From assembly GCA_001822815.1 (NCBI GenBank), contig MHSR01000013.1, forward strand, positions 85,093-149,092: a DNA stretch of 64,000 bases, written 5' to 3'. Source of the DNA: Candidatus Terrybacteria bacterium RIFCSPHIGHO2_01_FULL_43_35 (lineage in GTDB: Bacteria > Patescibacteriota > Minisyncoccia > Terrybacterales > GWB1-40-14). The position numbers and the translations under genes were made by a program. The first letter of the stretch is position 1, and each line of letters opens with the position of its first letter. Under the pieces are notes generated by a model. It ran no database searches. It had not been told where the DNA came from and saw only the letters and a list, made by a program, of their open reading frames with translations. This document shows, one piece after another, positions 13,509 through 61,157 of this stretch.

Positions 13509-13560
13509 ACTGCTCACCTCCCCTCAAAACAAAAGTTTAATGATGTTTTGATAAGATCAG

Positions 13561-13691
13561 CCTCGTTAGAAATTTACGGTAACTTTTCCGGTTAGAAAAG
13601 GTCGCGGCCTTTTCTAACTCCTTCTTGTTTTTTGCAAAGGCCAAAAAGTGTTCGCGGCCAAAATCCTTAATTTCTGTAAATTTCTAACGGG
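13561..13691. repeat. Family-B nested palindromic repeat (CGTTAGAAATTTAC ... GTAAATTTCTAACG outer IR; GTTAGAAAAGG-tcgcgg-CCTTTTCTAAC inner IR)
   Basis: Read from the sequence. It shares the CGTTAGAA/TTCTAACG core with elements at 52146, 53783, 57199 and 59737. Confidence 0.5.
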
Positions 13692-13729
13692 GTCAACGCC
13701 ATTATAAACAGGCAAGAGGCGGTGTCAAG

Positions 13730-17952: not shown

Positions 17953-19065
17953 TTATAGCTTAATCGGCATCAAAAGATAAAGTTGTTTGTTTTCTTCTTT
18001 TTCTGGTCTTATCATTCCTGGTTTGTTTTCTCCGCACAAGTAAAACGTGATGTTCTCGTCTTTAAAACCTTCTAGTCCGTCAATCAGATATTTTGAATTA
18101 AACACCGCGTTGACGCTTTCTCCTTTTGCGCTTTTGGTTTCTACTTTAGTTTCCAATACCCCTTTGTTTGGATCTTCACTTTTGATTTCTATTGTTTTTG
18201 CTTCGGTTTTAAAGGATAAATGGATATCATTTAAACGACTGGTTAATATATTAGCGGCTCGTACCTGATTTAAAAAAACTTCTCTAGCAACAACGAAAGT
18301 GGTTTTTGTTTCTTGGGGAATTATGTGTTTGTAATTAGGATAATTACCGTCTATAAGCCGTGAAACAAGGCTGGTTTTTCCAGCTCTAATTTCGATGTGG
18401 TTCTTATCCAACAAGAAATTTATTTTACTTTCTTGAACCGCTGAAAAAATTCTTATTATTTCTTGGGCGCATTGAAGGGGTATAATATACTGGCCCTCTT
18501 TCTGCTCCTTATTTATATCAATTTTTCTCTCCCCTAATCTAAACGTGTCCGTCGCCACAAGTGTTAAGTTCCCGTTAGAAAAATCTAAAAAAAGGCCGGA
18601 AATTTCGGGCCTAGATTCAGATACGGCAATAAGTGGCAGTAGAGATTGTAGATTAGACAAAAGAGAGCTTTTCTCTATTTCGTTTTGGTTCTCTTCGTTA
18701 ATTTTCGGAAGAAGTGGAAATTCGTCCCCGTCTTCGTGTTTAATCTTAAAGTTAAGTGCACCGTTTTCTATATACAGAAAAAGGGTCTGTTTTGTTGTGT
18801 AAAGATGTATTGGTTCGTTTGCGAATGTACTGGAAACGTCGCTTAAAATTTTTGCTGGAACGGCTACGCTACCCTTTGTTTTGATTTTTGCTGGAACGAT
18901 AGTAAAAGCCCCTAGTTCAAGATTAGTTGATTGAAAAGATAATCCAGAATCCTCCGTTTTTATTAGTATATTTTGTAAAATTGGTAGAGTAGCGTGTTTA
19001 TTCCAAATACGTTCAACAACACGAAGACCCTCCCTAAAATGTTCCGGTAAACACGTAATATCCAT
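17953..19065 (-). CDS. dnaN: DNA polymerase III beta sliding clamp
   Basis: 370 aa with a three-domain clamp-like pattern, located directly downstream of dnaA. Confidence 0.85.
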   Translation of the reverse strand: MDITCLPEHFREGLRVVERIWNKHATLPILQNILIKTEDSGLSFQSTNLELGAFTIVPAKIKTKGSVAVPAKILSDVSSTFANEPIHLYTTKQTLFLYIENGALNFKIKHEDGDEFPLLPKINEENQNEIEKSSLLSNLQSLLPLIAVSESRPEISGLFLDFSNGNLTLVATDTFRLGERKIDINKEQKEGQYIIPLQCAQEIIRIFSAVQESKINFLLDKNHIEIRAGKTSLVSRLIDGNYPNYKHIIPQETKTTFVVAREVFLNQVRAANILTSRLNDIHLSFKTEAKTIEIKSEDPNKGVLETKVETKSAKGESVNAVFNSKYLIDGLEGFKDENITFYLCGENKPGMIRPEKEENKQLYLLMPIKL

Positions 19066-19213: not shown

Positions 19214-20590
19214 TTACTCGTGTAAACGTAATCTTTCTTTTATAGTATTAATTTCATCAAAAATTTGGCCGTTCGTCCTACGTTCCTCCTCGATCTTTTC
19301 GCAGGCATGCATGACCGTAGTGTGGTCACGGCCGCCGATTTTACGTCCGATAAAAGGATAAGAATTCCTAAGTTCTTCTCTTAGGATATACATGGTTACC
19401 TGACGAGGTCGAACAACCTCTTGACGGCGACTCTTCTCTAGAATCTCGCGCTCTTCTATGTCATAAAAATCAGCCACAACCCGGATAACATCACGCCATG
19501 AACACTTCTTTTGAACTTTTATTGTACCGGACAAAAGTTTGTGTATTTCGTTTGGCGATATGTCTACTTGTCCACTAGTAGCTGAAACTCCTTTAACCAT
19601 GGCAACTCTATTTAAGGCTCCTTCAAGCTCGCGTATATTTTTTTGTATTATGTTAGCGATAGCCGTAAGGGTTTGTTCCGACAGCAATAATCCCCTTTCT
19701 ACGGATTTTGTTTTCAAAATAGCCATTCGTGTTTCAAAATCCGGAGGGGTTATATCAGCTATCATCCCCCCTTCGAAACGCGATCTCAGCCTTTCCTCAA
19801 GAGTGGGAATGGCTTTAGGCGGTCTGTCTGAGCTGAAAACCACTTGTTTGTTTTCTGTTGATAAGGCGTTAAAAGTGTGGAAAAGTTCTTCTTGAGTCCG
19901 TTCCTTACCGGCTATGAATTGAATATCATCTATAATCAAAACATCTAATTGCCGATATTTTTCTTTAAATTCGTCTATAGTTCGGTTTTTAATCGAGGAA
20001 ACAAAATCGTTGGTGAATTTCTCACAGCTTATGTACCGTATTTTTAAACCAGCGCGTTTTTTCATGAGCGCATTACCAACAGCTTGTAAAAGATGCGTTT
20101 TCCCTAGCCCCACTCCGCCATAAATAAACAAAGGATTATAAACCATACCAGTTCTTTCAGTCACTGCTTTTGCTGCCGCGTGAGCCAACTCGTTGAATTG
20201 TCCGATAACAAAACCATCAAAAGTATAGCGCGGGTTCAAATTAGTTTCGCGGTCAACTTGAGAATGTTGCAGGGGCAGAGAAAGAATGCTGGGAGCAGAG
20301 GCTGGATTTTTGGCAGCATGCGATACCCCGTTTTCTCTGTGTTGAGTTTTGCCTACGACGAATTGAATATCTCTTATCTCATTATCTTTTGTGCGCAAAG
20401 ATTTTAATATAGGCTTTCTATATTTGGTTTCTAGCCATTCTTTGGCAAAGGCATTTGGTACGCTCACCACCGCCAAGCCATCTTTTTTGTCGTAAAGAAC
20501 CGTTTTTTGGAACCAGGTAATAAAATTAGCCCTTGAAAGAGATAATTCTAATTCTCCTAGCACAAGCTGCCATAGATCATCTTTGGTCAT
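19214..20590 (-). CDS. dnaA: Chromosomal replication initiator DnaA
   Basis: Walker A GGVGLGKTHLLQA, box VII, and a C-terminal DNA-binding helix. Confidence 0.9.
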   Translation of the reverse strand: MTKDDLWQLVLGELELSLSRANFITWFQKTVLYDKKDGLAVVSVPNAFAKEWLETKYRKPILKSLRTKDNEIRDIQFVVGKTQHRENGVSHAAKNPASAPSILSLPLQHSQVDRETNLNPRYTFDGFVIGQFNELAHAAAKAVTERTGMVYNPLFIYGGVGLGKTHLLQAVGNALMKKRAGLKIRYISCEKFTNDFVSSIKNRTIDEFKEKYRQLDVLIIDDIQFIAGKERTQEELFHTFNALSTENKQVVFSSDRPPKAIPTLEERLRSRFEGGMIADITPPDFETRMAILKTKSVERGLLLSEQTLTAIANIIQKNIRELEGALNRVAMVKGVSATSGQVDISPNEIHKLLSGTIKVQKKCSWRDVIRVVADFYDIEEREILEKSRRQEVVRPRQVTMYILREELRNSYPFIGRKIGGRDHTTVMHACEKIEEERRTNGQIFDEINTIKERLRLHE

Positions 20591-22863: not shown

Positions 22864-22897
22864 GCCCAGCCCCAATTTTTAAAAAATGGGGCTGGGC
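22864..22897 (+). terminator. Terminator hairpin GCCCAGCCCCA-N-TGGGGCTGGGC
   Basis: Perfect 11-bp stem around an A/T loop. The same stem sequence recurs near 57062 and 57270. Confidence 0.6.
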
Positions 22898-30306: not shown

Positions 30307-30700
30307 TTAGCTAAAATTTCTAATTACTAATTTCTAATTGACCTAAGCAACTCTCAAGATACAAGATACAATAACCAGACAAATCACAATAATCAAAAGT
30401 TCAAATTCCAAAGCTCATCCTTCGACTCTACTCAGGATGACCCTGAACGGAAACGAATGGGTCAAATGACAATTCATGGATTCGACTTCGCTCACCATGA
30501 CCCTGAGTAGAGTCGAACGGGTCAATGCTTAAAATTCAAAGGCTTAAAACCGTTTTTGTGCCTTAGTCATTTAGGCTTGAATTGAAATTTAGATTTTGGC
30601 ATTTGGGTATTGTCTGTATCTTGGGTCTTGGTTATTCGCAACATTTTTGTCATTAGACATAGGGATTTGATTAGAAATTAAGAATTAGAAATTAGACATT
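30307..30700. mobile_element. Family-A MITE-like palindromic element (394 bp) inserted between the two halves of virB4
   Basis: Terminal inverted repeats AAATTTCTAATTACTAATTTCTAATTGACCTAAG (30314-30347) and its reverse complement at 30664-30700. Internal sub-palindromes are present (TCGACTCTACTCAGG / CCTGAGTAGAGTCGA). Related copies lie at 37451, 45858 and 56991. AT-rich, no ORF. Confidence 0.6.
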
Positions 30701-31363
30701 TTAAGCTTCTGCATTCAATGCGGCCATATCGGGTACTCCGCCAGTCTCTTCCTTCTCTGGATTATACAGGCCCCAAATTAGTTCTATTAGTTCTTCGGTG
30801 GTAAGCATGGTTGACCTAGAGCCCAAACCGCGCAAGCCTTGTTCAACAAATTCTACCCGTTGCACAAGTTGATTGCGAAACTCGTGGAATTTTGCGGCAT
30901 CTATAAAAAACTCTTTTCTGGACGCGGGCAGTAAGGTGGATTTAATACTGCCCAAGGGGCCGGTGTCTTTGGCCGCCGCGGCTTCAAGCGCAAAGGGCAC
31001 TATAACATAATAGGTTTTAGACATTATGGATACGGTTTCCACAAAAGAGCGTATGAATTCAATATATTCTTGGGTTTGGATCTTTAAGAGTTCATTTTCT
31101 TGGGCGGCCTCTAACTGCGAAAGAGTTGATAAATAGCCGGATATATTTAGGCGGCGCGAATGGACAAAAATCTGTAGATTAAAGTCCAGTGAGTTTAGAA
31201 AATTCTGGAAACCGTATATTATAGCCTCCTGTTCGTCTTGAGACTTCAGGCCAAAATTGGTTGCCGAAACCATTAAAATGGCTCGCAAAGAGCCGTCTTT
31301 TAACACAATGACATCGTCGCGTATTTGTTCAAATTGTAGGAAAGATTGAGTGGAAGAAGGCAT
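30701..31363 (-). CDS. virB4: VirB4 N-terminal domain encoded as a separate ORF
   Basis: FEQIRDDVIVLKDGSLRAILMVSATNFGLKSQDEQEAIIYGFQNFLNSLDFNLQIFVHSRR aligns position by position with the N-domain of A. tumefaciens VirB4 (...DHIVLLEDGSIMSIARIDGVAFELEEIEMRN...). 220 + 603 aa approximates one full-length VirB4. Confidence 0.7.
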   Translation of the reverse strand: MPSSTQSFLQFEQIRDDVIVLKDGSLRAILMVSATNFGLKSQDEQEAIIYGFQNFLNSLDFNLQIFVHSRRLNISGYLSTLSQLEAAQENELLKIQTQEYIEFIRSFVETVSIMSKTYYVIVPFALEAAAAKDTGPLGSIKSTLLPASRKEFFIDAAKFHEFRNQLVQRVEFVEQGLRGLGSRSTMLTTEELIELIWGLYNPEKEETGGVPDMAALNAEA

Positions 31364-31395: not shown

Positions 31396-31453
31396 TGCAA
31401 CGACGTGCATCCTAAGGAGCGAAGCGACGAGGGACTACCTTAATAAAAAATTC
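31396..31453 (-). repeat. 58-bp leader repeat, copy 1 (upstream of the VirB4-N gene)
   Basis: TGCAACGACGTGCATCCTAAGGAGCGAAGCGACGAGGGACTACCTTAATAAAAAATTC, versus copy 2 at 31926-31983 with 6 mismatches. An adjacent 38-bp hairpin (31368-31405) reaches to 5 nt from the start codon. Confidence 0.6.
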
Positions 31454-31925: not shown

Positions 31926-31983
31926 TGCAACCATGTGCATCCCGAGGAGCGAAGCGACGAGGGACTACCTTAATAAAAAATTC
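31926..31983 (-). repeat. 58-bp leader repeat, copy 2 (upstream of the VirB3-like gene)
   Basis: TGCAACCATGTGCATCCCGAGGAGCGAAGCGACGAGGGACTACCTTAATAAAAAATTC. A CATGGTTGC...GCAACCATG hairpin (31897-31935) includes the start codon. Confidence 0.6.
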
Positions 31984-37450: not shown

Positions 37451-37581
37451 AATTGACCTAATTACTCTAATTGATCTAAACAACGTCTAATGCCAAAATT
37501 TCTAAACGCGCATTTTGGTCATTGGTGCTTGGATATTGGGGCTTGCTTAGGTCAATTAGAAATTAGAATAATTAGAAATTT
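37451..37581. repeat. Family-A short palindromic element (TIRs only)
   Basis: AATTGACCTAATTACTCTAATTGATC ... GCTTAGGTCAATTAGAAATTAGAATAATTAGAAATTT. The right arm is the reverse complement of the left TIR at 30314-30350. Confidence 0.5.
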
Positions 37582-45857: not shown

Positions 45858-46058
45858 AGCATAAATTAAAAAGTAAAATGCTAATTGAAAATTTAAGAAA
45901 CAATTACCAAGAAACAAGATACAGACAATTTCCAATATTCAATAACCAATAATCAACTTTATGTTTGAATTTTGGAATTTGGGTATTGTAATTTGTCTGG
46001 TTATTGTTTCTTGTGTCTTGGTTATTATGACTTTTAATATTTAATTTTTGATCTGCGC
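45858..46058. repeat. Family-A-related palindromic element (inner arms)
   Basis: CAAGAAACAAGATACAGACAA...AATAACCAATAATCAA / TTTGGGTATTGT...TGTCTGGTTATTGTTTCTTG. Shares inner-arm words with 30350-30420 and 30570-30640. Confidence 0.45.
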
Positions 46059-51973: not shown

Positions 51974-53032
51974 ATGATTAACCGCGGCCCCATAAGCGAA
52001 TTAAAAAAACAGTTTCTTGAATATATAGAAGTAGAAAAAGGCCGTTCAGCCAAAACCGTAGAGAATTATGACCATTATTTGGAGCGGTTTTTCACTTGGC
52101 TTGTTGAAAATGTGAAGCCCCGTACCGAACGAAGTTCTGGTACTGGGGTTTCACGTGAAACCCCGTTAGAGGTCTCGCCCGCGCTTGCGCGCCCGCGAGA
52201 GTCTGCGGGGCGGGCCGCCTCTAACGAGGTGGAACCCCCTGTAGAAAAGCCTACTCTTTCAGATCTAACAGAAGAAAAGGTTAGAGCGTTTCGTGTGTGG
52301 CTCAACCGGAAATCGTTATCCAAACAGACACAGAATTATCACGTAATCGCACTGCGCATGTTCCTTAAGTTTCTTGCCCATAAAGGCATTGATGCTTTGT
52401 CCGCGGAACGTTTGGAGCTTGCTAAAACAGGCGCAAGGGAGGTTGATTTTCTTGAAGGTGAGGATTTGGAACGCATGCTTAGTGCGCCAAAAGGCAATGA
52501 TTTGCGCGCGTTGCGCGACCGAGCGATATTAGAAACCCTTTTCTCCACCGGCATGCGTGTTTCAGAGCTATGCGCCTTGGACATAGATCACATCAATATT
52601 GAAAAAGGAGAATTTGCTGTACGCGGGAAGGGCGATAAAATTAGGCCGGTTTTTCTATCGTATCACAGCAGAGAAACAATAAGGGATTACATGAACGCCC
52701 GCGCCGTAATAGTGGAAAAAGCCTTGTTTGTAAGGGTACCTCGTGGTAAGAATTCATTAAATAATGGTAATAATTTTACGCGCTTGACACCAAGATCGGT
52801 TCAGCGGTTGGTTCAACACTACGCGCAAAAAGCCGGCATAGTTGGTAAACACGTAAGCCCGCACACATTAAGACACTCTTTTGCCACCGATCTTTTGAGA
52901 AACGGCGCCGATTTGCGTTCGGTACAAGAAATGTTGGGACATTCTTCCATAACGACTACGCAAATATATACGCACGTCACAAACCCACAGCTAAAAAAAG
53001 TGCACGAAAAGTTCCACAAAGATCCTGAATAG
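51974..53032 (+). CDS. xerC: Tyrosine recombinase XerC/XerD family, with a roughly 40-aa repeat-derived insertion in the N-terminal core-binding domain
   Basis: C-terminal catalytic RHSFATDLLRNGADLRSVQEMLGHSSITTTQIYTHV. The N-domain is interrupted by a GC-rich segment encoding ...GTGVSRETPLEVSPALARPRESAGRAASNEVEPP... Confidence 0.85.
   Translation: MINRGPISELKKQFLEYIEVEKGRSAKTVENYDHYLERFFTWLVENVKPRTERSSGTGVSRETPLEVSPALARPRESAGRAASNEVEPPVEKPTLSDLTEEKVRAFRVWLNRKSLSKQTQNYHVIALRMFLKFLAHKGIDALSAERLELAKTGAREVDFLEGEDLERMLSAPKGNDLRALRDRAILETLFSTGMRVSELCALDIDHINIEKGEFAVRGKGDKIRPVFLSYHSRETIRDYMNARAVIVEKALFVRVPRGKNSLNNGNNFTRLTPRSVQRLVQHYAQKAGIVGKHVSPHTLRHSFATDLLRNGADLRSVQEMLGHSSITTTQIYTHVTNPQLKKVHEKFHKDPE
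52146..52230. repeat. Family-B GC-rich palindromic element inserted in-frame within xerC
   Basis: GGTTTCACGTGAAACCCCGTTAGAGG-(GC-rich core)-CCTCTAACGAGG. The first 45 bp are near-identical to 53783-53827. GC content is sharply higher than in flanking coding DNA. Confidence 0.55.
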
Positions 53033-53107
53033 AACAAGTAATTAAGATGTGTTCTACTAACCCGTAAGCAAAAAATGTTTCACGTGAAACATAAGCACTC
53101 TATATTA

Positions 53108-53782: not shown

Positions 53783-53930
53783 GGTTTCACGTGAAACCCC
53801 GTTAGAAATCTCGCCCGCACTTGCCCCGTTAGAGGCCCTCTTTTGGGAGGCAGTCACCCTTGACGATTTGCCTCTAACGGGGCTTGCGCGCCAGCGAGGA
53901 CCTTTGGGGCAGGCTGTTTCTAACGGAGTG
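53783..53930. repeat. Family-B nested palindromic element
   Basis: GGTTTCACGTGAAACCCCGTTAGAAATCTCGCCCGC ... CCCCGTTAGAGG-36 bp-CCTCTAACGGGG ... TTTCTAACGGAG. The 104-aa ORF called across it (53736-54050) is probably spurious. Confidence 0.5.
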
Positions 53931-55483: not shown

Positions 55484-56992
55484 ATGATTAAGTATAATTG
55501 TATGCGAGAAAATAAAACAGTTTTGGAAGAAATAAAAGTGCCGGATAAGATTCAGCTGCCAAAAGAAGTTAAAGAGACGATGCAAAAGCTGGATAAAGGC
55601 GGCTTTAAGGCTTTTGTTGTGGGCGGGTGTCTGCGCGATATATTATTGAGCCGCGATCCCAAGGATTGGGATATAGCCACCAATGCCGAGCCAGAACAGA
55701 TTCAAGAGATTTTTCCGGATTCATTTTACGAAAATACTTTCGGCACAGTCGGCATAAAAACAGATTCAAAAAAAGAAGAGCTGAAAGTAATTGAAGTCAC
55801 TACTTTCCGCATCGAAAGTGATTATACCGACAAGCGCCATCCCGATTCGGTGCATTTTGCGAAAACCATTGAGGAGGATTTATCGCGCCGCGATTTTACC
55901 ATTAACGCCATGGCTTGGGATGGCAAAACGCTTATTGACCCTTATGGCGGACAAAAAGATCTTAAAAAAAGGACTATAAGGACTGTTGGCGATGCCGATC
56001 GGCGTTTTCAAGAGGACGCCCTAAGGCTTATGCGCGCTATACGCTTTGGCTCCGAGCTCAATTTTGTTTTGGATAGCAGGACAGCCGAATCCATGCACGA
56101 TCATGCCGGCTTGCTGGAGTTTATTTCTAAGGAGCGCATAGGAGACGAATTCCGCAAATTAATCATGACTACGCACGCGGCACGCGGCATAGAACTTTTG
56201 CGCGATTTAAAAATGCTAAAGTTTGTTTTGCCTGAACTTGAAGAAGGTTGGGATGTTGATCAGAATAAGCATCATATTTATACGGTGTGGGAGCATAATG
56301 TACGTGCCTTGCAATATGCTACCGAACAAGGATATTCTTTTGACGTGCGCTTGGCGGCGTTGCTTCACGATGTGGGCAAACCAAGAAGTAAGCGCGGCAC
56401 CGGTCCGGATTCAACTTTCTACGGCCATGAAGTTATCGGTGCCAAGCTTGCCGCGCGGGCCCTGGAGCGTCTGCACTTTTCTAAAAAAGAAATAGAAAAA
56501 ATATCTTTGCTGGTGCGCGCACATATGTTTAATTATGATCCAAATGTTGTCACCGACGCTTCAGTAAGAAGGCTTATAGCCAAAGTAGGGGAGGAGAACA
56601 TAAAAGATCTGGTTCAAGTGCGTGAAGCTGACCGCATAGGCTCAGGCGTCAAAAAAGCCGTGCCTTATAAGCTTAGGCACTTTATGTTCAGGATTGAGAA
56701 AGTTCTGGCCAAACCGGTTTCGCGCAAGACCATGAAGCTTGATGGAAATGAGCTTATGACTGTCTTGAAACTTGAGGCAGGACCGCGCGTGGGCGCAATT
56801 TTGGAAGCATTATTTGAAGAAATTTTAGATGATCCAGGGCGCAATAAGAAAGATTACCTTGTTGCGCGGGCAAAAGAATTAAATGAGATGTCAGATAAAG
56901 AACTTGGGGCCTTGCGCAAAAAAGCACAGGATAAGTACGCCTCAGTTCTTGAATACGAGGAAGGATTGATGAAAGACAAATATGGCGTATAA
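55484..56992 (+). CDS. cca: CCA-adding tRNA nucleotidyltransferase with HD domain
   Basis: Pol-beta NT motif FVVGGCLRDILL...DWDIAT. HD domain LLHDVGK...H...D. Confidence 0.85.
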   Translation: MIKYNCMRENKTVLEEIKVPDKIQLPKEVKETMQKLDKGGFKAFVVGGCLRDILLSRDPKDWDIATNAEPEQIQEIFPDSFYENTFGTVGIKTDSKKEELKVIEVTTFRIESDYTDKRHPDSVHFAKTIEEDLSRRDFTINAMAWDGKTLIDPYGGQKDLKKRTIRTVGDADRRFQEDALRLMRAIRFGSELNFVLDSRTAESMHDHAGLLEFISKERIGDEFRKLIMTTHAARGIELLRDLKMLKFVLPELEEGWDVDQNKHHIYTVWEHNVRALQYATEQGYSFDVRLAALLHDVGKPRSKRGTGPDSTFYGHEVIGAKLAARALERLHFSKKEIEKISLLVRAHMFNYDPNVVTDASVRRLIAKVGEENIKDLVQVREADRIGSGVKKAVPYKLRHFMFRIEKVLAKPVSRKTMKLDGNELMTVLKLEAGPRVGAILEALFEEILDDPGRNKKDYLVARAKELNEMSDKELGALRKKAQDKYASVLEYEEGLMKDKYGV

Positions 56993-57121
56993 ATTTCTAA
57001 TTTTTAATTTCCAATTTCTAATTATTCTTAAAAATAAATTGAAGACTGTGTCATGGTGTACCCAGCCCCAATTCTTAATTAGAGCTGGGCAGCAGTATGT
57101 CCTGGCACGCATTAAAAAACT

Positions 57122-57192
57122 CGGAGATTAGTATACCGGTAGTACGCACGCTTCGGGTGCGTGAAGACCGGGTTCGATTCCCGGATCTCCGA
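57122..57192 (+). tRNA. tRNA-Pro (anticodon CGG), no encoded CCA
   Basis: Hand fold: acceptor CGGAGAT/ATCTCCG (C1:G72 as in tRNA-Pro), anticodon stem CACGC/GCGTG with loop TTCGGGT, T-arm CCGGGTTCGATTCCCGG. Confidence 0.85.
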
Positions 57193-57336
57193 CTAAAAAT
57201 TTCTAACGAGGCAAGGGTGCGCTTGTCCTGAGCATATTGAAGGATAAAGACCGAGTTCTTCCGCCCAGCCCCAGTTTGAAAAAATAACAAACTGGGGCTG
57301 GGCGGGATTGCTGTTTGTTTCCAATCGTTCCGACGA

Positions 57337-57365: not shown

Positions 57366-57467
57366 GATTCTCGGCGCCCCGACCCAGTTTTTAATCAAGA
57401 CCGATTTCTACTTAGGCGAATGCAGTTAAAACAAGTGTGTCCAAGCCATTGAACCATTACGGTGATA

Positions 57468-59178: not shown

Positions 59179-59745
59179 ATGAGCTATGCTTTAATGGGTA
59201 AGAAAGGACAGGTCAAAACGTCATATATGACAAAGAAAATAAGTAAAAAGGAACAGGATTTTATGCGCTCGTATGACGCTCATGCGGACGCGTTATTTCG
59301 GCACTGCTATTTTCGCGTATATGACCGTGAGCGAGCTAAAGAGCTAGTGCAGGAAACATTTATGCGTGCCTGGGAGTATGTGGTCAAAGGGCATAAAGTA
59401 CAAAATCTTCGCGCTTTCCTCTATCGAGTCGCAATAAACCTTATTATTGACGAATCGCGAAAGAATAAACCAGTCTCTTTGGATGAACTAGCTCAAAGTG
59501 GATTTGATGTAGCAAGCGAAGAGTATGAAATGCTGCACACGAAAATAGATGCCTCTAGCGCCGCAGCATTGTTTAAAAACTTGGACGACAAACATCGCGA
59601 GGTTATAATTTTACGTTATTTAGACGGGTTTAAGCCCAAAGAAATAGCCCGGATGCTTAATGAATCTGAAAACGTGGTTTCGGTGCGCCTGCACAGGGCC
59701 ATTAAACAAATTTCAGGCACGTTTACCGCACATGAATCCCGTTAG
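59179..59745 (+). CDS. ECF-type RNA polymerase sigma-70 factor
   Basis: Region 2 (ALFRHCYFRVYDRERAKELVQETFMRAWEY) and region 4 HTH (ILRYLDGFKPKEIARMLNESENVVSVRLHRAIKQI). Confidence 0.8.
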   Translation: MSYALMGKKGQVKTSYMTKKISKKEQDFMRSYDAHADALFRHCYFRVYDRERAKELVQETFMRAWEYVVKGHKVQNLRAFLYRVAINLIIDESRKNKPVSLDELAQSGFDVASEEYEMLHTKIDASSAAALFKNLDDKHREVIILRYLDGFKPKEIARMLNESENVVSVRLHRAIKQISGTFTAHESR

Positions 59746-59940
59746 AAGCCGCGATCGCAAAGGATTAGCAATAAACCCCGTTAGAAAGTTATTTTTGAAA
59801 CTTTTATAGGGAATATTATAATTGATGTGTTTGTGATGCGAGCTTTCTAACGGGGTAAAAATATCTATGTCATATATATAGTATCCATACAAATAATTTT
59901 GCAGATTGAGATCATTGATCGCGATCTGCTTCTAACGGGA
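59737..59940. repeat. Family-B nested palindromic element spanning exactly from the sigma-factor stop codon to the next start codon
   Basis: Outer IR TCCCGTTAGAAGC (59737-59749, containing the TAG stop) and GCTTCTAACGGGA (59928-59940, abutting the ATG). Inner IR CCCCGTTAGAAAG (59777-59789) and CTTTCTAACGGGG (59843-59855). Also GCGATCGC...GATCGCGATC sub-palindromes. Confidence 0.55.
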
Positions 59941-61157
59941 TGAATAACAATCTCCAAAAATTAATAAACGAAGCTAAGCTTTGGGGCTTAACCGTCGAAG
60001 AGCGAAACGGCATTCGCCGAAACCTACTTGCTTTTATGGAGAGCAATCCGCAAGGCGTTCACGGTTTTGGCGCCGAAGCCAGGGTTTCAAACTGGCACGT
60101 CTTATTTACTGCCAAGCCCGTAGCGCTGTTTTTGAGTATTATTTTAATACTGACTGGTAGTACTAGCTTGTCTTTTGCCGCCGAAAACTCTTTACCAGGA
60201 GAAATACTTTATCCAGTCAAGGTAAACATAATCGAAGAAGTACGTTCTGCCCTGGCCTCATCGACTGAAACAAAGGCCAAGTGGGAAAGTGAGCGTATGG
60301 CCGTAAGGCTTGAAGAAGCTGAAGCATTGGCTAACAATGGCCAATTAACCCCCAAGCTCAGAGCAGAGATAGAATATAATTTTGAAAAACACGCTCAGCG
60401 GGTTGATGAGCATGTGGCCAAGCTTGAGGATGAAGGTAACGTTCGGGCCGTAGCCCAGGTTTCATCAAATCTTGAAGTGTCGCTGGAAGTGCACCAAGCT
60501 ATTTTAGAGAACCTTGCCGACCAGGAAAGCGCGGCAGAAGAAATTGATAACGGCGTCATAGGGCAGAGCGAAGAGCTTCTTATCAAAATAGAAGAGAAGA
60601 AAGATTTTGCTTCCTTAGATAGACAGGACAGCGAAGAAAAGGTTTACGAACAACCAACGGACGCCGCTGAAGCTACCGCCCAGGCTGGCTTGCAAGAAGC
60701 CGAGAAGCGAATAGTTCAAGTGCAGGATTTTATATACAATGATAATAAAAGTTCAAAATCCAGCGCAGATTTTTCTTTGATGGAACGCTCGCGAGCCCGT
60801 CTCCTTTCAGCCAAACAAATTTTAGATGACGGTAAGGTTAAGCTGGAGGCCAAAGATTACGCCGAAGCCTTCGTTTTGTTCCAAGCCGCAGACAGGGCAG
60901 CTAGACGAGCCCAATTAATAATGGAGACAAAAAACAATCTTGATATAGAAATTGAGTTGGATGACGATCCAACGGTTTTAGATGAGAATGAATCAAACGC
61001 AAAGACTGAAACCGATAACAACAGTGAAGTAAATGCCGTTGTCGGAGATCCGCCATCTTCGGAAGAGTCCTCAGGGAGCATTTCTAATCAAGACGCCACG
61101 GCGAATAATGAAGATCAACCAGTCGAAGAAGCGTCGCCGGTAATCAGTCTTCCGTAA
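59940..61157 (+). CDS. Single-pass membrane protein downstream of the ECF sigma gene; putative anti-sigma/DUF5667-like partner
   Basis: About 55-aa cytoplasmic N-domain, a TM (VALFLSIILILTG), then a helical extracytoplasmic domain and an acidic tail. Assignment is by genomic context. Confidence 0.4.
   Translation: MNNNLQKLINEAKLWGLTVEERNGIRRNLLAFMESNPQGVHGFGAEARVSNWHVLFTAKPVALFLSIILILTGSTSLSFAAENSLPGEILYPVKVNIIEEVRSALASSTETKAKWESERMAVRLEEAEALANNGQLTPKLRAEIEYNFEKHAQRVDEHVAKLEDEGNVRAVAQVSSNLEVSLEVHQAILENLADQESAAEEIDNGVIGQSEELLIKIEEKKDFASLDRQDSEEKVYEQPTDAAEATAQAGLQEAEKRIVQVQDFIYNDNKSSKSSADFSLMERSRARLLSAKQILDDGKVKLEAKDYAEAFVLFQAADRAARRAQLIMETKNNLDIEIELDDDPTVLDENESNAKTETDNNSEVNAVVGDPPSSEESSGSISNQDATANNEDQPVEEASPVISLP

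Follow-up and report, generated by a model that had tools for sequence, protein, structure and literature searches.

Short palindromic elements with a common 13-bp end in a Terrybacteria genome and in several other phyla: a probable family of MITE-like transposons

What are the nested palindromes found at 13.56 kb of this DNA, and why do their ends recur at other sites of the same stretch? The window, by which we mean the whole 64-kb stretch that was analysed, takes in the origin region, where dnaA (19214-20590) and dnaN are minus-strand genes and rpmH/rnpA/yidC plus-strand genes; it also has a type IV secretion-like cluster and four tRNAs. A preliminary description had listed 15 sites of the decamer CCYCGTTAGA or its complement, at a density that it considered to be above chance, and this density is indeed confirmed, as there are 10 exact matches on the two strands (13561, 13683, 52161, 52220, 53797, 53824, 53873, 57202, 59776, and 59846) against 0.14 expected, and none of 100 shuffles reaches 10. 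The remaining five sites of that list, at about 13591, 13610, 53918, 59740, and 59931, are one-mismatch variants, which read CCGGTTAGA, TCTAACTCC, TCTAACGGAG, TCCCGTTAGA, and TCTAACGGGA. Related motifs are in excess as well: the window has 7 copies of the 10-mer CCCGTTAGAA or its complement (0.07 expected), or 17 if one mismatch is allowed (3.8 expected), and 13 of CGTTAGAA (2.5 expected). When the one-mismatch variants are included, these motifs resolve into seven hairpin elements, plus one orphan end, distributed over five loci. The arrangement as nested palindromes, described as constant, is found at 13.56, 53.8, and 59.7 kb, but at 52.16 kb there is a single pair and at 57.2 kb only the orphan end. 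All the paired copies of the window fold far better than shuffled sequence (z -4.5 to -7.4). An exact CCCGTTAGAA is also present inside dnaN (18571-18580), with no partner end, and is either a chance occurrence or a relic.

The element that gave rise to the question, E1 (13561-13692), is 132 bp long, its ends CCTCGTTAGAAAT... and ...ATTTCTAACGGGG forming a 20-bp stem, and its flanking duplication is TCAG (13557-13560) / TCAA (13693-13696); within it there is a degenerate nested copy, E1-inner (13588-13621), of the form CCGGTTAGAAAAGG-TCGC-GGCCTTTTCTAACTCC, each end of which is a one-mismatch variant. Two relatives that are syntenic at this point (L191 and L192, with tyrS, a small ORF, and ruvC) have the intergenic sequence TTGACA-N16/17-TATAAT-GGCG-TTGA-TTTAA, and thus preserve the empty site, TATAATGGCG-TTGA-TTTAA, while in the window E1 is placed exactly after TTGA, CTGA then following. 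A 12/12 consensus promoter, TTGACA-16-TATAAT, lies on the minus strand at 13728-13701, and E1 begins 9 nt past its -10 box, so that the transcript of the small ORF should open with a hairpin of 132 nt.

Two more elements are found directly to the right of a sequence, GGTTTCACGTGAAACC, that we take to match the parS consensus TGTTNCACGTGAAACA (the B. subtilis site). E2 (52161-52229; 69 bp, GC-rich) lies in the right half of the parS-like site at 52147-52162, has the 5-bp duplication TGAAA (52156-52160) / TGGAA (52230-52234), and is read through as part of a xerD-like ORF (51974-53032, plus strand). The closest XerD homologues, 65-69% identical and of 307-311 aa as against 352 aa here, keep NVSRET, the in-frame translation of parS, and are without the approximately 30 residues encoded by E2 (PLEVSPALARPRESAGRAASNEVE...); at the DNA level, the parS of xerD is uninterrupted in L130 and L131, which is the empty site of E2. 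E3-outer (53797-53928), a homologue of E2 with 74-93% identity, occupies the right half of a parS-like site at 53783-53798, with the duplication TGAAA / TGAGA, and the orthologous intergenic parS is uninterrupted in L131/L132. Nested in it, E3-inner (53824-53882; 59 bp) is bounded by an exact CTTG on either side (53820-53823 and 53883-53886), and its target can be read without interruption in E2, where CTCGCCCGCGCTTGCGCGCC stands at the same place. In L129/L130 a different element is found in the other half-site of the same parS, GTTTCA-C-CCCGTTAGA...TCTAACGGG-G-TTTCA-CGTGAAAC; it duplicates TTTCA and leaves parS intact, and in the window it is the mirror-image half-site, TGAAA, that is duplicated.

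The parS half-site G|TTTCA|C fits the target preference set out below, and has been struck repeatedly; a perfect 16-mer, TGTTTCACGTGAAACA, at 53076-53091, carries no element and provides an example of an unoccupied target. The three parS-like sites (52147-52162, 53076-53091, and 53783-53798) lie within 1.7 kb of one another, about 32 kb from dnaA, and the one situated inside the xerD-like ORF is translated as VSRET, an arrangement that is kept in related species. Both of the element-bearing sites begin with G, not T, which hints at gene conversion between them. One XerD-like homologue (P0012) has a different insertion of some 30 aa in the same position, after a degenerate VLRGT, and this suggests that the parS-encoding spot of the gene has been hit repeatedly.

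The orphan right end, E4 (AAATTTCTAACGAGG, 57197-57211), is found 4 nt after tRNA-Pro (57122-57193); no partner end was found for it, and in L130 the orthologous tRNA-Pro is not followed by such an end. At E5, two elements are again nested. E5-outer (59737-59940; 204 bp) stands between an ECF sigma ORF (59179-59745) and a DUF5667 ORF (59940-61157), flanked by an exact duplication of TGAA (59733-59736 and 59941-59944), and it contributes to both genes, as its left end provides the TAG stop of the sigma ORF, and the last base of its right end, an A, is the first of the downstream ATG. Its removal restores CATGAATAA, where the sigma stop overlaps the ATG of the next gene; the element splits the overlap of a sigma/anti-sigma gene pair at ATGAAT. 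E5-inner (59776-59855; 80 bp, AT-rich) is flanked by an exact duplication of TAAA, the third of the exact duplications in the window together with those of E3-inner and E5-outer, and includes an 11/12 promoter-like sequence, TTGAAA-16-TATAAT (59795-59822, plus strand), directed toward the downstream gene. In the relative L130, the orthologous sigma gene has an independent copy of its own at its ATGAAT start codon.

The window also contains other repeats. A second, AT-rich family (30315-30701, 37516-37566, 45894-46027, and 56991-57022; for example AATTTCTAATTACTAATTTCTAAT and TTGGAATTTGGGTATTGT...) consists of long imperfect direct and inverted repeats that join distant intergenic sites, and is probably the "family A" of the earlier reader. 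The sequence GCCCAGCCCCAATTTTTAAAAA occurs four times (22864-22885, 57060-57081, 57263-57284, and 57376-57397), and in the stretch 57259-57307 it folds as a GC hairpin with a T-run behind it, giving the appearance of a shared intrinsic terminator. Finally, a direct repeat of 58 nt, 93% identical (31396-31453 and 31926-31983), is found upstream of two adjacent genes, PrgI and TraC-like, of the type IV secretion-like cluster.

The pattern CCCGTTAGA-N35-65-TCTAACGGG was scanned for in one genome per GTDB species, and at least 120 loci were obtained, although by our own calculation chance predicts roughly 270 matches over the entire collection, so that the number of loci alone proves little. The matches are nevertheless clearly members of one family. 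In 126 copies taken from GTDB genomes, the 9-mer is bordered on the left by Y (C/T) in 125 cases and on the right by R (G/A) in 123. Beyond these bases, the four nucleotides to either side repeat each other directly and not in inverted form: their variable middle positions agree in 73-76 of the 126 copies, where about 35 are expected, with the inverted comparison at the level of chance, and the 4-bp core is exactly duplicated in 57, against 7.4 for shuffled pairings. When GTDB genome, viral, and metagenome matches from public data are brought together (276 non-redundant copies), an exact 4-bp duplication is found in 135 (14 expected) and one of 5 bp in 8 (0.4 expected), with 3-bp duplications at chance. 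The duplicated bases are YNNR, mostly TNNA (TTTA, TTCA, TGAA, TTGA, TAAA, TCAA), with a weaker preference for R before them and Y after. A model with a 6-bp duplication was rejected, as in copies with an exact 4-bp core its outer positions agree in only about 50% of cases, and the terminal Y/R are nearly invariant.

The terminal inverted repeat is 5'-Y-CCCGTTAGA-RRY at both ends, the opposite end reading TCTAACGGG (the pair for the family may also be written YCCCGTTAGARRY ... RYYTCTAACGGGR). The complementarity between the ends is 93, 89, and 79% at positions 10-12, whose consensus is R-R-Y, and about 33% at position 13, a fall by which the element is defined as having a sharp terminal inverted repeat of 13 bp. 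The median length of the copies is 74 bp and the range 23-236 bp (59-204 bp in the window); they have no coding capacity of their own, and are for the most part unrelated to one another in their interiors. E2 and E3-outer are members of one GC-rich subfamily that is met again, in either orientation, in unrelated CPR genomes, with a conserved three-way fold and with AU/GC swaps at end positions 10-12. Nested and tandem copies are common in other genomes. We also considered a structured RNA, and rejected it: the interiors are unconserved, and no Rfam family overlaps any element at E<=1, only the tRNAs reaching the gathering score. In the published literature, no description of the family was found, either by its motif strings, which match only primers and unrelated oligonucleotides, or as MITEs of CPR/Patescibacteria/Planctomycetes.

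The distribution is very broad. Among 80 matches listed, 41 loci are in Patescibacteria/CPR, including Saccharibacteria, 18 in Planctomycetota, 5 in Omnitrophota, 3 in Desulfobacterota-like genomes, 2 each in Cloacimonadota, Bacteroidales, and Gammaproteobacteria, and 7 unclassified, and identical ends are present in at least five named phyla. Several loci have 2-3 copies, several MAGs are matched on two or more contigs, copies that show the same signature in their flanks are present in twelve viral contigs, and some metagenome contigs, such as L160 and L165, have arrays of 10-12 copies per kilobase. Other arrays containing the ends were observed: in L174 (269-922; also in L162 and L170) a 39-bp unit, ATGGAATTCTAACGAGGATTTTGTATTTGTTTTATTAGT, is repeated in tandem about 17 times, every unit having the right-end motif TTCTAACGRG and one frame being open (WNSNEDFVFVLLV), and L162, of 3.6 kb, has 41 end motifs and no ORF of 180 codons or more from stop to stop.

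The copies also show a habit with respect to genes, for which the preliminary description had proposed a check. In 35 of 140 copies, the element abuts a start codon (29 ATG, 6 GTG) that opens an ORF of at least 80 codons, against 11% at random RTNNAY sites, a generous control in which internal codons are counted; in 24 of the 140, an ORF ends within the end of the element. ATGAAT and ATTCAT are among the commonest targets. Plausibly, insertions at start codons survive because the terminal A and the duplicated TGAA rebuild the start codon.

Six assemblies, among the 22 contigs on record, were compared with the window; they are 99.9-100% identical to it and identical across E2-E5, and neither inversion nor allele variation at the elements was found among them, which gives no support for ongoing mobility in this population. 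Several independent assemblies of this population break inside or just after E5 and E3 (the ends of L002 at 59832, L003 at 59786, and L006 at 53943), as is expected of repeats, which confuse assemblers. In one assembly of the same population (L003, at 10627), 67 bp corresponding to 55885-55951 are missing from the gene of the CCA-adding enzyme, splitting it into ORFs of 137 and 320 aa; the loss may be a true deletion allele or else an artefact of assembly.

With all this, the palindromes are very probably copies of a family of non-autonomous, MITE-like DNA transposons moved in trans, presumably by cut-and-paste or copy-in through an enzyme of the DDE type. The observations are the sequence of the ends, with its sharp limit at 13 bp, the statistics of the duplications, orthologous sites that are empty (in related Terrybacteria, for E1, E2, and E3), the nesting, and the spread across phyla and genomes, and it is in the MITE sense that the proposal of a "REP/MITE-like" family holds. 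Each copy would have two 13-bp ends around an interior of 0 to about 200 bp, unrelated between copies; a transposase supplied in trans would bind both ends and cut the target with a stagger of 4 nt, occasionally 5, at r|YNNR|y, mostly TNNA, and the repair of the gaps would leave the target-site duplication. The copies would be tolerated in start codons, 5' UTRs, between coupled genes, and inside protein loops, because their ends fold into a hairpin and because the duplication, together with the terminal base, rebuilds sequences such as ATGAA. Counting against this explanation are the outcome of the search for an autonomous element, given below, the sameness of the six assemblies compared, the heterogeneity of the interiors, and the existence of copies of only 23-31 bp, features that MITEs descended from a single insertion sequence do not usually have and that sit uneasily with a synaptic complex of two ends, as well as the fact that about half of the copies are without an exact duplication, which could be due to decay.

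Alternative explanations for these palindromes are that they are REP/BIME sequences, spread by a RAYT (an HUH Y1 transposase) acting on single-stranded hairpins, or that they are the paired operators, or binding sites, of one conserved protein, whether a regulator or a ParB/Noc-like factor. The likeness to REP/BIME and RAYT systems lies in the very short palindromes, some of 23-40 bp, in the mostly intergenic location, and in the dense clusters (L160, L165), and intragenic REPs and RPEs are also known (PMC3733652). However, REPs have no target duplication, whereas here those of 4 bp are significant; the ends are symmetrical and paired fully to the terminal Y:R, with no unpaired GTAG or CGTC tag; the same ends recur in at least five named phyla, whereas a REP sequence is specific to a species or clade; and the Pfam annotation of the 64-kb window includes no Y1_Tnp domain. 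We regard this origin as very improbable, and this part of the earlier proposal is not supported. In favour of the operators, only the 13-bp ends are conserved and the interiors vary freely, two copies abut parS sites near oriC, and the ends are conserved across phyla as parS is. Nevertheless, the orthologous sites of close relatives are wholly without these sequences and the filled sites bear duplicated target bases; some copies are inserted into others or into an ORF, and they occur in hundreds of unrelated gene contexts with no common neighbour; and the half-sites are spaced from about 5 to 218 bp apart. Paired operators, which had been offered as the other possible reading, thus seem scarcely credible.

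A recombinational origin would take one of two forms. In the first of these, the hairpins are moved by a tyrosine recombinase, of the integron-integrase or XerD-like type, and the flanking repeat is the crossover region. Joined ends, TTCTAACGGG-N4-6-CCCGTTAGAA, would give two inverted 10-bp arms with a spacer of 4-6 bp, as in a core-type site, tandem copies are exactly 6 bp apart in L026 and L110, and the gene that bears an element is XerD-like and labelled as an integron integrase by some sources. The core sites of attC are GTTRRRY and RYYYAAC, and GTTAGAA and TTCTAAC resemble them; the attC sites of integrons are likewise palindromes of variable length in which only the ends, with 7-mers containing GTT/AAC, are conserved. 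Yet the order is the opposite, since attC has RYYYAAC (5')...GTTRRRY (3') and here GTTAGAA...TTCTAAC is read on either strand; the target sites have no arm-like sequence in common; the copies, unlike attC, are flanked by duplications and found outside cassette arrays, without an intI/attI context; and neither the integron nor the Tn916-type reaction gives true target duplications. A tyrosine recombinase is thus a very unlikely agent. In the other form, the palindromes are invertons, that is, inverted repeats around a promoter that is flipped by a site-specific invertase, as the 11/12 promoter-like site between the inverted repeats of E5-inner and the nearby tyrosine recombinase gene might suggest; but the orientation is identical in the six assemblies compared, most interiors, some of them of 5-20 bp, have no promoter, and the duplications and empty sites point to insertion, for which reasons we give this idea hardly any credence at all.

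If the MITE-like explanation is accepted, the enzyme that moves the elements has to be sought. In 1.38 Mb of sequence around 190 loci, neither a transposase nor an autonomous element bounded by these ends was found, and the Pfam annotation of the window includes no transposase domain of any kind. Every pair of ends with a duplication at a distance of 0.6-5 kb proved to be a composite of small, separate copies and enclosed no transposase, and an all-against-all clustering of 698 ORFs from 120 loci revealed no recurrent neighbour gene, only housekeeping and type II/IV secretion genes. Three orphan ends that came up in this search adjoin housekeeping genes, for thiolase and solute-binding proteins. 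In the metagenomes, ends situated 550-580 bp apart corresponded to composites, dense arrays, and unrelated long palindromes (L164, L184), as well as, judged by eye, a truncated segment of a group II intron-type reverse transcriptase (L177). A 584-bp copy (L183, 2864-3447) that has proper ends and a duplication of TTTA contains an ORF similar, as judged by eye, to DUF559/Vsr-type endonucleases and bordered by GGGGAGAGGG-type palindromes; this ORF was rejected as the mobilising enzyme and is considered cargo or a nested insert, because it occurs only once in the 1.38 Mb.

The CC(C)-start ends and the T..A duplications of 4-5 bp are the features from which a link to transposases of the IS1380/piggyBac or IS5/Harbinger types appears possible. 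Elements of the IS5/Harbinger type have TNA or YTAR targets. The left inverted repeat of ISEcp1, of the IS1380 family, is CCTAGATTCTACGT, and its duplications are AT-rich and of 5 bp, such as TAATA and TAAGA (PMC6061673); the terminal repeats of piggyBac start with CCC and its duplication is TTAA, of 4 bp, with IS1380 serving as its prokaryotic outgroup (PMC10813416). A bolder version, which we think rather unlikely but worth stating, is that these are pan-phylum hairpin transposons, defined by a 13-bp end only, with a bias for parS and start codons, and moved by a class of enzyme new to bacterial MITEs; the candidates would be a prokaryotic piggyBac/IS1380-like transposase with a TNNA target, or a nuclease or recombinase encoded by the host or by phages and acting on the extruded hairpin. 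If this were true, a major and overlooked force would be reshaping the gene starts and partition sites of reduced CPR genomes.

The genomes of CPR/Patescibacteria are small and are generally held to be poor in mobile elements, a reputation despite which seven copies are found in 64 kb. Their effects in this window are a longer XerD-like recombinase, the occupation of two of the three parS-like sites near the origin, the uncoupling of a sigma/anti-sigma pair, and the remodelling of a promoter-proximal region. Given that about a quarter of the copies are at start codons, the family is likely to be a source of annotation errors and of regulatory changes in many uncultured lineages. The mobilising enzyme, once found, would define a new transposon-host relationship, and might provide a prokaryotic counterpart of a cut-and-paste system with a 4-bp target.

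Compared with other known systems, the IS1380/piggyBac elements share ends that start with CC(C) and contain TAGA, with duplications of 4-5 bp, but the target here is TNNA, and never TTAA in the copies examined, and no transposase of that kind was found with the present ends. The palindromic elements of Rickettsia are also found within coding genes and translated as an extra peptide, which recalls E2 in the xerD-like gene, although their ends differ from those of the present family and they have no demonstrated 4-bp duplication; these RPEs are of 100-150 bp, CGTC-tagged, and exclusive to Rickettsia (PMC3733652). There is also a likeness in general form with bacterial MITEs such as Correia/NEMIS (Neisseria), RUP (S. 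pneumoniae), ERIC/YPAL, and bcr1, which are also short and non-coding, with terminal inverted repeats, duplications, and hairpins, situated next to or between genes, able to carry promoters, and present or absent at a given site between relatives. Those MITEs, however, are homogeneous in sequence, of 70-300 bp, and restricted to one genus or species, and their duplications, for the most part TA or others, go with an insertion sequence that is known, whereas here, with no known partner insertion sequence, only the 13-bp ends are shared, the length goes from 23 to 236 bp, the duplication is a 4-bp YNNR, and the copies extend over several phyla. This is a real and well-defined family, whose ends are conserved unusually widely, and whose interiors are unusually free, for one of the MITE-like kind.
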